Assembly: GCA_964415175.1 (NCBI GenBank) | Contig: CAYPYG010000007.1 | Location: 10,869 to 74,868 of the forward strand | Length of the DNA stretch: 64,000 nucleotides | From: an uncultured Elusimicrobiaceae bacterium | GTDB taxonomy: Bacteria; Elusimicrobiota; Elusimicrobia; Elusimicrobiales; UBA9959 | Reading direction: 5' to 3' | Shown: positions 5,961 through 46,486 of the stretch, piece after piece | Numbering within the stretch: the stretch's first letter is position 1 | Layout: each line of letters begins with the position of its first letter | Position numbers and translations under genes: made by a program | Notes under the pieces: generated by a model | Seen by the model: only the letters and a program-made list of their open reading frames with translations | The model's database searches: none | What the model was told of the DNA's origin: nothing

Positions 5961-6836
5961 ATGGGCTATTCGAAAGCCGCTCTTCAACTGCTGGTAAGGG
6001 CATTCAAGGACAAGGAATGCTCGGGGAAGGTGCTTACATTCGGCAGGAACGGCGTGGACGCCGATCATGACGGTCTTCTCAGGATATTCCGGCGGGAGGG
6101 CCGCCCGCCCAGGGTACTGCCCGAATCCGAAGTGAAATACGATCCGCTCACCCAGTTCGGCAAGTCCATACATCAGGACGTTTTCTTCAAAATGCTGGGG
6201 TTCGACGAGATTCACAGCGTCGATTACTTCGATAACGAGAAGCCGACTTTCACTCTGGACCTGAACAAAAGGATACCGCGGGAACTGGAAGGGCAGTACG
6301 ACCTGGTCTCGGACGCGGGGACGCTGGAGCATTGCTTCGACGTCAAGGAGGTGCTGTTCAATACCGTAAGGTTATTGAAGCCCGGAGGCCATGTAGCCTT
6401 TTTCTCACCGATGTCCGGAATGGTCGACCACGGTTTCTACAGTTTTTCTCCGACGCTTTTCCGGGATTTTTTCAAGATCAACGGCTTTGACGGTATGCAT
6501 ATGAGCATACTGCGGGCTCGCGGGGGTTGTTTCAGGACCGCTAGACGCCGGTACGATTACACCCCCGGTACCGCGGAGGTCATAAGCGATCTGTTCGGGA
6601 AGAGCGACATATTCTTCACGGCCAGGAAAGCTGCGGCCGGCCCGGAACTATTAGTGCCGATACAGGGCTACTATATGACGCAGTTCGGCGATGAAAAGAG
6701 CAAAGCGGGGAAAACCCCCTGGAAAGAAGCGGTCAAACGCCTGCTGGGCCTGAAGCTGGCGTACTTCCTCTACAGGCTGTCGCTCTCGGTCAGACGCTTC
6801 GTCATACTGAATTTCCGTTTCGAGAGAATGCTCTAA
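5961..6836 (+). CDS. class I SAM-dependent methyltransferase-like protein (low-GC islet)
   Basis: 291 aa. DLVSDAGTLEHCFDVKEVLFNTVRLLKPGGHVAFFSP matches the post-I/II region of Methyltransf_11/23-type enzymes. Motif I is atypical (VLTFGRNG). Confidence 0.55.
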   Translation: MGYSKAALQLLVRAFKDKECSGKVLTFGRNGVDADHDGLLRIFRREGRPPRVLPESEVKYDPLTQFGKSIHQDVFFKMLGFDEIHSVDYFDNEKPTFTLDLNKRIPRELEGQYDLVSDAGTLEHCFDVKEVLFNTVRLLKPGGHVAFFSPMSGMVDHGFYSFSPTLFRDFFKINGFDGMHMSILRARGGCFRTARRRYDYTPGTAEVISDLFGKSDIFFTARKAAAGPELLVPIQGYYMTQFGDEKSKAGKTPWKEAVKRLLGLKLAYFLYRLSLSVRRFVILNFRFERML

Positions 6837-33077: not shown

Positions 33078-33605
33078 TCACTTCTTCTTCTTTTGCGGCG
33101 GCGGCGGGACCTTGCCCACCGAGACCAGCTCCAGTTCGCAGGTCTTGTCCTCGGCGGAATACTCCTCCAGGATATACCCGGTGCCGGGGGCGTAGTAACG
33201 CACGGCCTTGCCCGAATCGCCGCCCGAGAGCTGCGAGACCACCTTCATGCACTTTTCGAACTTGCCGGCCTTTATCGAGACCTTGTCGGAAAGCGAGACT
33301 ATCTCGTTGGCGTCCGGATGCTCGTCCCACTTGACGCCCTCTCTGGGCGGCAGGGGGAACTCGCGGCGGCCGCCGATTATGACGCCGTCGGCCGTGGTCA
33401 GCCACTTGGCGTCGCGGGTGATATTGTACTCGGTGACGTGGGTGTCGCGCAGTTCGAAGGTCATGCGTGCCTGGGCGACGGTCTTGCCGGCTTTTTTGGC
33501 CACCTTGAGTATGTCTATGAAGACTTTGGCCACGCCTTCGAACTCGGTGCTCTTATAGCGGTACTCGTAGCGGACGTTCTCTTTGAGGGGGAAATAATCG
33601 GCCAT
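33078..33605 (-). CDS. hypothetical protein (C-terminal PPPPQKKKK tail)
   Basis: 175-aa ORF with plausible composition, 5 nt upstream of asnS. No family recognised. Confidence 0.55.
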   Translation of the reverse strand: MADYFPLKENVRYEYRYKSTEFEGVAKVFIDILKVAKKAGKTVAQARMTFELRDTHVTEYNITRDAKWLTTADGVIIGGRREFPLPPREGVKWDEHPDANEIVSLSDKVSIKAGKFEKCMKVVSQLSGGDSGKAVRYYAPGTGYILEEYSAEDKTCELELVSVGKVPPPPQKKKK

Positions 33606-33696
33606 AAGGTCTCCTGTGCGCGGCTTTTTTTATCCGCGTATAATTTTACAAATTATGAGGGGAGAAATTACCTGAAAACCGCGGCGCGGCCCGCTT

Positions 33697-33743
33697 CACG
33701 TCCAAAAAAATAGCCCCTTTCGGGGCTAAATTTTTTGGACGTG
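33697..33743 (-). terminator. intrinsic terminator with an extended stem
   Basis: The core hairpin TAGCCCC-GAAA-GGGGCTA (33711-33728) is followed by a T-run on the minus strand. The flanking CACGTCCAAAAAA / TTTTTTGGACGTG arms extend the inverted repeat to about 20 bp. Confidence 0.6.
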
Positions 33744-33816
33744 ACAGGGATCGAACCTGCGACCTCTTCCTTGCTCACTCGCGTCCGGCGGCCTGCTGGC
33801 CGCCGGCGCCTCGTCC
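33736..33816 (-). ncRNA. tRNA-Ala-derived tRNA-like element (acceptor + T-arm + one long GC hairpin; not a canonical cloverleaf)
   Basis: 81 nt, GGACGAG..GCAGGTTCGATCCCTGTCACGTCCA. The 3' 39 nt are 32/39 identical to the adjacent tRNA-Ala, with compensatory T-stem changes. The D and anticodon arms are replaced by a CCGGCGGCC-AGCA-GGCCGCCGG hairpin. No CCA is encoded. Confidence 0.5.
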
Positions 33817-33831
33817 GAGGCTCTTGAAATC

Positions 33832-33907
<76 letters not shown>

Positions 33908-33918
33908 GTAATCGGGTA

Positions 33919-34869
33919 CTACCAGTCTATACCGGCCTCTTTGGCCGCGGCCTCCACGCGCTTCTTGGCCTTGAGATGCTCTTTGAAACTGACATTGAAC
34001 ACGTGCTTGCCCTGCCTGTCGGCCACGAAATAGAGCGCGTCTATATTGGCCGGCTTGAGCACGGCTTCCACCGAGGCCTTGCCCGGGCTGCATATCGGTC
34101 CCGGCGGAAGGCCCCTGGCGTAATACGTATTGTACGGCGAAGGGGTACGGAGGTCCTTGTAGGAGAGCCTCTTCTTCCAGTAGCCCAGCGCGTACTGCGT
34201 GGTCGGGTCGGCTTCCAGCGGCATCCTCCTCTTTATGCGGTTCAGGTACACCGCGGCTATCAGGGGACGTTCGCTGGTCACCACCGCCTCGCGCTCCACG
34301 ATGGAGGCGATGATCAGGACTTTCTTTTCGTCCAGACCCGGCGGGAACCCTTCAGAGAACAAAGGCCTTATCTGCCTGTCGAATTCAGATTTTAGCAAAT
34401 TTAGCACGTCCTGCGCAGGCTGCCCCTTCTTGAAACTGTAGGTCGAAGGGAAAAGATAGCCCTCCAGTTCCCGGGCTTTGGCCAGTTTTACGAACTCTTC
34501 CCCGGAGGTGACGCCGTTGGCCTCCAGGCGCTCGGCGACCTGCTCCAGGCGCCAGCCTTCGGGGATCACTATCTTCACGTCGGAGATATAGGGCGTGTTG
34601 ATCAGCCGCCAGAGCACCTCTTCCGACGAGGCGCCGCGGCGGAACGAGTATTCGCCCGGCATTATGCGCTTGTCGGTGCCGGTAAGGCGGACCAGGACCT
34701 TGAACCAGGTCGAACTGCGGATGGCGCCCGAGGACTTGAGCTGTTCCGCTATCTGCGAGGCGCCGGAGCCCTCTTTGATGACCACCTCGACCTGGTCTCC
34801 CGGCCAGAAAAAGTAAAGGGCCAGGAGCAGCAGGAACGCGGCCGCGGCGGTGAATATTCTCTTTGCCAT
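33919..34869 (-). CDS. mltG: endolytic murein transglycosylase MltG (YceG-like)
   Basis: 316 aa. An N-terminal TM, with the YceG motifs [22 protein letters not shown] and SPYNTY..GLPPGPI. Confidence 0.88.
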
Positions 34870-46216: not shown

Positions 46217-46298
46217 AGTATCCACCTCAGCAAGACTTACAACGCCTGGTATTCCGCGCCGAGTGGTGAATCCGGATTAAGGTCCGGAGGTGGATACT
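46217..46298 (-). promoter_or_regulatory. 5' leader helix sequestering the SD of the MBL hydrolase gene
   Basis: In the minus-strand RNA, AGUAUCCACCUC (46298-46287) is perfectly complementary to GAGGUGGAUACU (46228-46217), which contains the SD and abuts the AUG. The two are about 58 nt apart, with a CCGGA hairpin between them. Confidence 0.4.
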
Positions 46299-46486
46299 CC
46301 CCGGCCTATCCCGGGGATTACACAGCGGCAGATATAACCTATGGACAAAAGACCCCCCGGGCAAGGACCAAAGGGCCTATATGTCCATAGGACCTTAGAC
46401 CTACTGTCAAGCGCCGGGGCGCCCGGCCGGACGCCGCCCGGGGAGCACGCGCCCGCCGGCGACGTTCCGTTTAGTAGAATATAAGC

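Follow-up and report, generated by a model that had tools for sequence, protein, structure and literature searches.

The tRNA-Ala(CGC) gene of an uncultured Elusimicrobiaceae bacterium (order Elusimicrobiales; contig CAYPYG010000007.1) is followed, on the same strand, by an 81-nucleotide element that repeats part of the tRNA. The window analysed here is the whole 64-kb stretch of that contig, and genes on its minus strand run in the order tyrS, a FecR-like gene, ligT, mltG (YceG family), tRNA-Ala, the element, orf175 and asnS. Element coordinates refer to the minus strand of the window, and tRNA nucleotide (nt) numbers to positions of tRNA-Ala(CGC) (Table 1). An earlier reading made from the letters of the window, here termed the sequence-only reading, had proposed a tRNA-like RNA without precedent among bacterial classes, with an acceptor/T-arm minihelix and one hairpin in place of the D and anticodon arms. 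The account that we prefer, with roughly even confidence, is that local rearrangement of the tRNA-Ala(CGC) gene produced the element as a pseudo-tRNA mosaic, a non-autonomous gene fragment now in decay, and that it is not a dedicated tRNA-like RNA.

The layout given by the sequence-only reading is confirmed, both in the placement of the element relative to the tRNA and in the single terminator downstream of it; the terminator scan found none between tRNA-Ala and the element. The stem-loop of that terminator is also listed as terminator-like on the plus strand. The genuine tRNA scores 66.9 bits with the Rfam tRNA model. The 3'-most bases of the spacer (CCTC) are already part of the inverted anticodon-arm copy described below, and the GATTT....(G)CCTC pattern of the spacer is seen again in short-form copies of relatives.

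Table 1. Features of the tRNA-Ala(CGC) locus, in order along the minus strand of the window
Feature	Position	Strand	Remarks
tRNA-Ala(CGC), allele a2, D-loop AGCTGGGA, T-stem AGGGG/CCCCT, encoded CCA	33832..33907	-	called by ARAGORN and by Rfam tRNA
15-nt spacer GATTTCAAGAGCCTC, between tRNA-Ala and element	33831-33817	-	
Element, 81 nt	33816-33736	-	15 nt 3' of tRNA-Ala, 5' of terminator
Inverted copy of tRNA nt 24-43	33806..33820	-	17/17 match in long-form relatives
GC hairpin CCGGCGGCC-AGCA-GGCCGCCGG, 9 bp	33785..33806	-	at the inverted-to-direct switch
Linker ACGCGAGTGA	33775..33784	-	consensus of relatives, GAGCCCGAGTGA
Direct copy of tRNA-Ala nt 35-73, allele a1 T-stem GCAGG/CCTGT, letters GCAAGGAAGAGGTCGCAGGTTCGATCCCTGTCACGTCCA	33736..33774	-	
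Intrinsic terminator, stem-loop TAGCCCCGAAAGGGGCTA and T7 run	33704..33728	-	terminator scan; stem 33728-33711
GGACGTGA, inverted copy of the tRNA 3' acceptor strand (TCACGTCC)	33696..33703	-	extends the terminator palindrome

Composition and fold of the element

The last 39 nt of the element match tRNA nt 35-73 at 32 of 39 positions, and the AGGTC variable loop, the TTCGATC T-loop and the 3' end CACGTCCA have the same letters in both, all as first reported. Five of the seven differences fall in the T-stem, where pairing is kept (G:U, C-G and A-U), and the other two lie in the 3' strand of the anticodon stem, where CGAGG has become GGAAG. A 22-nt string from the T-arm and acceptor strand occurs in the window only in the tRNA and the element, with 0 occurrences expected from 100 shuffles, so that sharing of the 22-mer by chance is not expected. 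The proposed derivation from tRNA-Ala(CGC) is upheld. Judged by its letters, the element is a genuine partial copy of the adjoining tRNA-Ala gene.

Three pieces make up the element. One is tRNA nt 24-43 in inverted orientation, the next the GC hairpin together with a short linker, and the last nt 35-73 in direct orientation. The inverted piece is carried at greater length at loci L014, L005, L090 and L010 (the labels L002-L094 denote the loci and contigs compared), whose long forms have CGTTGCGAACGAGGCGC, a match at 17 of 17 positions with tRNA nt 24-40 read as the reverse complement. In the window this inverted anticodon arm survives as CCTCGGACGAGGCGC, with 5 nt of its loop deleted; where CCTCGTTGCGAACGAGGCGC would be expected, the letters are CCTCG-----GACGAGGCGC, owing to this deletion and to one A>G change. 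GGACGAG, the stretch previously assigned as the 5' strand of an acceptor stem, sits inside this inverted anticodon-arm copy. At L009, L010 and L021 the inverted copy can be traced as far as the T-arm (about nt 62) and carries the local tRNA allele. The tRNA 3' end is also mirrored beyond most terminators, which are followed by TGG or by TGGTGGACGTGA (the latter at L031 and L019, with TGGACGTGA at L008), and the window's terminator also follows the genuine tRNA in L008.

The tRNA-derived segments of the locus are accordingly ordered direct-inverted-direct: the tRNA, the reverse complement of nt 24-43, and then nt 35-76. The first junction is the terminator palindrome (CCA...TGG) and the second is the hairpin, which is located exactly where the inverted copy gives way to the direct one and which in relatives is flanked by GCT...GAGC, resembling a D-stem. 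A simple tandem duplication whose 5' half later diverged was rejected, since the 5' part of the element corresponds to reverse-complemented tRNA and not to the tRNA 5' half.

The perfect 9-bp hairpin with its AGCA loop is present as described in the sequence-only reading; it is the sole hairpin of its kind in the window, and with its flanking sequence it occurs there once. The minimum-free-energy fold of the element reaches -42 kcal/mol (z = -3.5 relative to shuffles), a stability due to the GC hairpin, and in that fold the T-arm is not formed. The hairpin is equally stable when folded from either strand (-15.56 and -15.50 kcal/mol), so nothing in it marks an RNA rather than a DNA palindrome. 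Strand-specific hairpin stability was accordingly set aside as a diagnostic, equal sense and antisense folds being uninformative either way.

Gene finders behaved as had been anticipated. ARAGORN, run on the window, called only tRNA-Ala 33832-33907 at this locus, leaving the element uncalled and reporting no transfer-messenger RNA (tmRNA), and in an Rfam scan of 33600-33960 at E<=10 the tRNA model matched the genuine tRNA alone, the remaining matches being at chance level. Membership of a known RNA family was rejected because, at gathering threshold, Rfam returned only tRNA and one riboswitch from the window and 14 related loci. The element has neither a D arm nor an anticodon arm and is called neither by ARAGORN nor by the tRNA model RF00005, and it is not a canonical tRNA.

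The acceptor 3' strand CACGTCC has two possible partners in the window. The proposed 5' strand GGACGAG forms 6 of 7 pairs, and a downstream GGACGTG (33703-33697) does better, with 7 of 7. The downstream partner raises the reading that the element is the acceptor piece of a permuted, two-piece tmRNA-like gene, in which removal of an intervening hairpin would let the T-arm and CACGUCCA pair with the downstream GGACGUG. The tmRNA_permuted and beta_tmRNA models do align the T-arm, CACGUCCA, the loop and GGACGUGAAGCGG, but their scores of 23.3 and 20.0 bits are far under the gathering thresholds of 47 and 84 bits, and ARAGORN reports no tmRNA. Whichever candidate 5' strand is taken, position three of the acceptor stem pairs A with U, so that the alanine identity pair G3:U70, the G:U required by the alanyl-tRNA synthetase AlaRS, is absent. 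The supposed intervening segment is an intrinsic terminator, and neither a tag reading frame nor pseudoknots were read downstream, ARAGORN being the sole formal test. In L008, moreover, this terminator and GGACGTGAAGCG follow the genuine tRNA, which makes them the tRNA's palindromic 3' flank, and the inverted acceptor-strand copy at 33696..33703 explains the weak model matches. Taking together the sub-threshold scores, the missing ARAGORN call, the lack of G3:U70 and the L008 flank, we consider the permuted tmRNA effectively refuted and give it next to no credence.

Copies in relatives and alleles of the tRNA

For comparison, 80 syntenic mltG loci with 45-97% MltG identity were fetched, and a metagenome scan with the element's junction motif yielded 10 further contigs. 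All copies of the element found in this way (19 distinct genome copies and the 10 metagenome contigs) lie at the tRNA-Ala(CGC) locus, with mltG and/or orf175 as neighbours wherever the flanks are visible. A dispersed repeat of the repetitive extragenic palindromic (REP) or miniature inverted-repeat transposable element (MITE) kind was rejected on the single occurrence of the hairpin with its flanks in 64 kb and on the location of 10 of 10 metagenome matches at tRNA-Ala(CGC). Copies of the window's type, downstream of the tRNA, are referred to as Form D; their 19 distinct sequences make up alignment A1.

A second arrangement, Form U, lies upstream of the tRNA and consists of tRNA nt 1-28, CGCAG, the hairpin and linker of Form D, and tRNA nt 35-60. 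The acceptor 3' strand is missing from Form U, and the 3' strand of its T-stem resembles the other tRNA allele. Such pseudo-tRNAs stand between mltG and the tRNA at L016, L023, L031, L051 and L088-L091, with at least two tandem copies at L088.

On a neighbour-joining tree of MltG, Forms D and U are restricted to one clade, which comprises the window's subclade and a large group at 65-71% identity, and within which the forms are patchy and sister genomes often differ in presence. A check of the syntenic locus in related genomes, suggested earlier, therefore cut both ways: the element recurs in relatives, but it is damaged or missing in those near the window. L004, the nearest genome match (97% MltG identity), lacks the equivalent of window 33797-33696, which holds the 3' arm of the hairpin, the entire tRNA-like half and the terminator. 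L005 has an element truncated in the acceptor strand, L006 and L008 have none, and L007 retains a 5' remnant only. L008 is equivalent to the window minus one 99-nt repeat unit (33865-33767), and the 3' half and flank of its single functional tRNA are those of the window's element. Elsewhere, L032 and L084 have an insertion of ~125 nt within the acceptor strand; at L017, L018, L022, L026, L039 and L055 the tRNA is followed directly by orf175; and a terminator between tRNA and element is present in some genomes and absent in others.

Two further loci, L002 and L003 (independent Logan assemblies SRR8476370 and SRR8476420), encode identical MltG, and both stop exactly at tRNA nt 29. These ends hint at an assembly-graph branch point, and hence at strain-level structural variation that begins in the anticodon stem.

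The sequence-only reading had taken the paired T-stem differences between tRNA and element as compensatory changes and as a sign of structural selection. That argument falls once the tRNAs of relatives are considered. The majority of the clade carries a genuine tRNA-Ala(CGC) of allele a1 (D-loop AGTTGGGA, T-stem GCAGG/CCTGT), and over its final 31 nt the element agrees with these tRNAs at 100% identity. The window's tRNA is of allele a2, which appears at ~7 separate places on the MltG tree. Since GCAGG/CCTGT is the unchanged T-arm of relatives' tRNA, the five paired differences are those between two functional alleles, and the T-stem difference reflects allele replacement of the tRNA and not change inside the element. 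Fragments match the allele of the adjoining tRNA, a1 beside a1 and a2 beside a2 (L021, L034, L013). The window is the sole discordant case, with an a2 tRNA and an a1 fragment, and its copy is also the most mutated, with CGAGG changed to GGAAG, the CCA lost, and the one A>G that happens to lift acceptor pairing to 6 of 7. As a separate observation, the D-loop and T-arm always switch together between the alleles, T16 going with GCAGG/CCTGT in a1 and C16 with AGGGG/CCCCT in a2.

Alignment A1 shows essentially no variation in the T-arm, in the acceptor 3' strand or in the 5' motif CGAACGAGGCGC (the T-arm being unchanged in all 19 copies and the motif in 16), so that covariation cannot be assessed for the T-arm and acceptor; T-arm invariance in itself says nothing about structure, as gene conversion accounts for it. 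The strand in the 5' acceptor position is GAACGAG in 17 of 19 copies, and it makes 5 of 7 pairs in the 15 copies that keep CACGTCC, 4 of 7 in L093, and 6 of 7 in the window only. RNAalifold predicts no acceptor stem from the Form D alignment, and no conserved or covarying 5' strand complementary to the acceptor 3' strand was found. The acceptor stem of the sequence-only reading thus holds for the window's own 6 of 7 pairs and fails in relatives, and its 5' strand has another source, the inverted anticodon arm. Similarly, the CCA is indeed missing from the window, but this is a window-specific loss, ACCA being encoded at the end of 15 of 19 copies. The GC hairpin does vary with compensation among relatives (GGCGGCC/GGCCGCC, GGCGCC/GGCGCC, GGAGCC/GGCTCC), its AGCA loop is kept in 17 of 19 copies, and GAGTGA in the linker is nearly invariant; outside that hairpin, which alone of the helices put forward for such a check covaries, no covariation was seen in the 19 Form D sequences.

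A functional, clade-specific RNA derived from tRNA-Ala has to be weighed against these data. In such an RNA a module of T-arm, acceptor 3' strand and CCA would stand behind the hairpin and a segment antisense to tRNA-Ala nt 24-36, and it might act in cis on the processing or stability of the tRNA-Ala precursor or on the orf175-asnS message, or else serve as a substrate of RNase P, RNase Z or the CCA enzyme. The invariance of AACGAGGCGC, GAGTGA and nt 35-76 in almost all 19 copies, next to spacers that are unalignable, speaks for it, as do the compensated hairpin with its kept loop, the frequent CCA, and a fold more stable than shuffles. The cassette is also always on the tRNA strand, between tRNA-Ala and orf175, and a second cassette type of the same architecture exists in a sister clade. 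Yet the element is lost, truncated or interrupted in many lineages, the nearest relative among them; relatives manage 5 of 7 acceptor pairs, the T-arm and acceptor do not covary, and the hairpin has no sense-strand bias. Its context varies with the terminator that some genomes place between tRNA and element, and it follows the allele of the adjoining tRNA, as gene conversion predicts rather than independent constraint. The window's copy, lacking CCA, has two substitutions in an otherwise invariant block and no Rfam family match. Functional tRNA-like modules include the tRNA-like domain of tmRNA, YrlA, viral 3' tRNA-like structures and the minihelix substrates of mascRNA type. The element shares with them a TTCGATC T-arm, an acceptor 3' strand and (in relatives) ACCA, without an anticodon arm, and it differs in having no conserved complementary 5' acceptor strand, no G3:U70 and no Rfam family at threshold, and in being dispensable in close relatives. 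We regard a functional RNA of this kind as unlikely.

Mimicry of a T-box or an aminoacyl-tRNA synthetase leader was dropped on inspection: the codon-bearing loop is deleted in most copies, and the window's terminator precedes orf175.

Integration at tRNA-Ala(CGC)

The tRNA is itself a target of integrase-bearing elements. Viral contig L094 (IMGVR_UViG_3300005326_000425) encodes a tyrosine integrase (PF00589), an S24 repressor, CII and an amidase. Some 30 nt past the stop of the integrase gene, positions 6602-6653 of the contig repeat window 33876-33825 at 100% identity; these 52 nt comprise a2 tRNA nt 32-76 and 7 trailer bases, GATTTCA. This block is a phage attachment site (attP). L068 has an island integrase (PF00589) 121 nt after the orthologous tRNA. 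Integration at distinct sublocations within tRNA genes was reportedly treated by Williams in 2002. With the L094 attP and the L068 integrase in hand, a tRNA copy running from the anticodon loop to the 3' end is the natural unit of phage-borne duplication at this locus, and the direct repeat of the element does begin in the anticodon loop, covering nt 35-73 in the window and nt 35-76 with the trailer in relatives.

L094 itself is a candidate phage of the window's lineage or of a relative, despite a GC content of 50% compared with 65% in the window. The attP spans nt 32-76 only and does not account for the D-loop linkage of a1 and a2 (tRNAs of the window and L004-L083). Replacement of the tRNA 3' half by a phage of the L094 type was for this reason rejected as the source of the a1/a2 discordance.

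These findings bring up the possibility that the element is a scar of the right attachment site (attR) type, or a gene-less mini integrative cassette like a cis-mobilizable element (CIME). An identity block of the attP from the anticodon loop to the 3' end would have let a tyrosine-integrase element restore the tRNA while displacing its original 3' half; the inserted element would then have decayed to its two arms, ~57 nt, and related integrases may still mobilise these in trans. Beyond the position of the direct repeat, which like att blocks starts at nt 35 and extends to the 3' end and trailer, and beyond the L094 identity and the L068 integrase, the possibility draws on presence/absence pairs bounded at the repeat (L092 against L017 and L055, L024 against L017, and the window against L008), on the different variants in the near-identical genomes L031 and L051, and on tandem arrays at L042 and L088. 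Decayed elements accrete at tRNA 3' ends (PMC5704250), which the variants and arrays recall, and tRNA fragments are common at attR sites (PMC9897764). As with attR and left-site (attL) remnants and with CIMEs, which are decayed integrative elements reduced to their att sites (PMC9897764, PMC5704250), the element is a partial 3' copy of the tRNA in direct repeat with the intact gene, at a tRNA targeted by phages or islands, and such fragments can be mistaken for odd tRNAs by gene finders.

Differences from those remnants are as marked. The repeats of the element are only ~57 nt apart, and at none of the ~30 loci does an integrase or any other gene lie between them. Instead of foreign DNA, the arm consists mostly of host tRNA sequence, inverted and of the local allele, together with the hairpin, and it matches no known attP; beside its identity block, L094 has an arm that bears no relation to the element. 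A search of 2.9 million viral contigs gave 0 matches for the junction GAGTGAGCAACGAGGAGGTC and for the 29-mer of the a1 T-arm and acceptor, on which grounds a phage origin of the arm (junction 20-mer and a1 29-mer) was rejected. The difference between alleles a1 and a2 extends to the D-loop, which no anticodon-loop identity block would cover, and the cassette is conserved across a family-level clade. An attachment-site scar or mini cassette is a minority reading, and we hold it to be rather improbable.

Origin of the fragment and its setting

A decaying mosaic formed by rearrangement, the reading preferred here, is supported by the confinement of the element to one locus and to a single patchy clade, by its dispensability, by the concordance of tRNA and fragment alleles, and by the lack of a tRNA-like signal. 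In the ancestor of one Elusimicrobiales clade, a template switch during replication or repair would have taken place at the palindromes of the locus, the terminator hairpin and the tRNA stems, and would have left a direct-inverted-direct partial duplication of the tRNA gene. The ancestral layout would have been the tRNA, the terminator as palindrome centre, an inverted copy of about nt 76 to 24, the GC hairpin, the direct copy of nt 35-76, and a terminator, with the perfect palindromes afterwards trimmed through small deletions. The 40-50-bp direct repeat with the tRNA allows the cassette to be lost, re-formed or exchanged by recombination; the presence/absence pairs bounded at the repeat show that it mediates loss and exchange. 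Such recombination, acting as gene conversion, would keep the tRNA-derived parts like the neighbouring tRNA. In the window, the tRNA would later have been replaced by a2, the allele in the L094 attP, leaving the fragment with a1 and in the early stages of decay. The element is probably transcribed passively to the terminator as a 3' trailer of the tRNA precursor, and then discarded.

Comparable processes are known: short inverted repeats give rise to inverted triplications and tandem inversion duplications (PMC4689423), and template switching at quasipalindromes makes the arms of inverted repeats alike or inverts their spacers (PMC7202029, PMC8604942). Because template switching homogenises the arms of inverted repeats, compensation in the GC hairpin needs no RNA selection, and the position of the hairpin at the inverted-to-direct switch is as expected for snap-back junctions (PMC4689423). 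The element resembles such rearrangements (PMC4689423, PMC7202029, PMC8604942) in the direct-inverted-direct order of its tRNA-derived segments, in junctions at hairpins (the terminator, and the GC hairpin with its D-stem-like flanks), in the anticodon loop inverted in long forms, and in hairpin arms that are complementary without strand bias. It is unlike them in scale, tens of bases instead of kilobases, and in having persisted, conserved, far longer than such unstable intermediates normally do.

A second parallel is found in the tyrT-distal repeats of E. coli, 178-bp tandem units each with the last ~19 nt of tRNA-Tyr. There too, copies of a tRNA 3' end lie just downstream of the gene on the same strand and are co-transcribed ahead of the terminator, and copy number shifts by unequal recombination; the tRNA segment is shorter, however, there is neither an inverted tRNA copy nor a GC hairpin, and the repeats are not known outside E. 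coli and its close relatives.

Several observations weigh against decay from a single rearrangement. The tRNA offers no source for the hairpin's centre or for the linker, and only the flanks fit a snap-back at the D-arm. AACGAGGCGC, GAGTGA and the AGCA hairpin, for which there is no long tRNA donor, are nearly invariant, and they are so across species whose adjoining spacers are unalignable (L029 compared with L043); near-invariant motifs of non-tRNA origin are not what neutral decay would leave. L031 and L051 have near-identical MltG but different cassette variants, a difference that requires exchange, beyond vertical descent. Finally, a sister clade (L033, L036, L042 and L048, at 61-66% MltG identity) has a cassette built alike with other boundaries, which hints at a systematic agent or recurrent mechanism at tRNA-Ala and not a one-off accident.

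In the sister-clade cassette, an inverted T-arm region is followed by a hairpin-forming middle of ~57 nt and then by the tRNA from T-arm to 3' end in direct orientation; L042 carries at least two units in tandem.

Near-invariant non-tRNA motifs and a cassette in the sister clade fit both an RNA module and a miniature cassette. That the element is a functional module conserved in this clade, whether an RNA of antisense segment, hairpin and tail or a miniature integrative cassette without genes of its own that is mobilised in trans by phage integrases targeting tRNA-Ala(CGC), is in our judgement doubtful.

Other features were noted in and around the locus. A structured module of ~130 nt with three hairpins, flanked by CGTGA/TCACG, lies beside or inside tRNA-Ala fragments, in one orientation at L009, L010, L013 and L021 and in the opposite one at L015, L016 and L032/L084; it is partial at L007, and a possible relic is present at window 33696-33665. 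In its alignment (A2, 7 sequences only) 13 of 48 predicted pairs are changed on both sides with most pairs intact, and in the six carriers scanned it had no Rfam match at gathering threshold; the module may represent a structured RNA not described before, or else a mobile element of miniature size. The product of orf175 (175 aa; window 33078-33605, minus strand), a gene always found between tRNA-Ala and asnS in the clade, had no match in a Pfam search. Upstream of it, at ~33660-33640, is an AT-rich motif, ATAATTTGTAAAATTATAC, that is conserved wherever a terminator parts orf175 from the tRNA, with equivalents at L004, L007, L008, L009, L014, L019 and L023; it looks like the gene's own promoter, though a scan with the sigma-70 consensus did not flag it. 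Farther away in the window, minus-strand positions 46258-46328 match the full model of the 2'-dG-II purine riboswitch aptamer (RF03165) with 67.5 bits, where the gathering threshold is 60; this riboswitch class is rare.

An unprecedented class of tRNA-like RNA is not needed to account for the element, since fragments of tRNA genes adjoining tRNA genes are a known by-product of recombination (PMC9897764), and on the comparisons made here the element is one that behaves like known tRNA-gene fragments at tRNA genes targeted by recombination. Such fragments risk being mis-annotated as odd tRNAs or over-read as RNA classes, and paired differences between a tRNA and its copy can mimic compensatory evolution; here they are two alleles, one of them present in a phage attP. 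The locus itself is also of some interest: in Elusimicrobiales, mltG-tRNA-Ala(CGC)-orf175 is a hot spot that gathers tRNA pieces in both orientations as well as small structured modules, where tRNA alleles switch repeatedly and a phage attP matches the window's tRNA over 52 nt. If the conserved motifs of the cassette are functional, it would represent a new tRNA-derived regulatory or mobile module.

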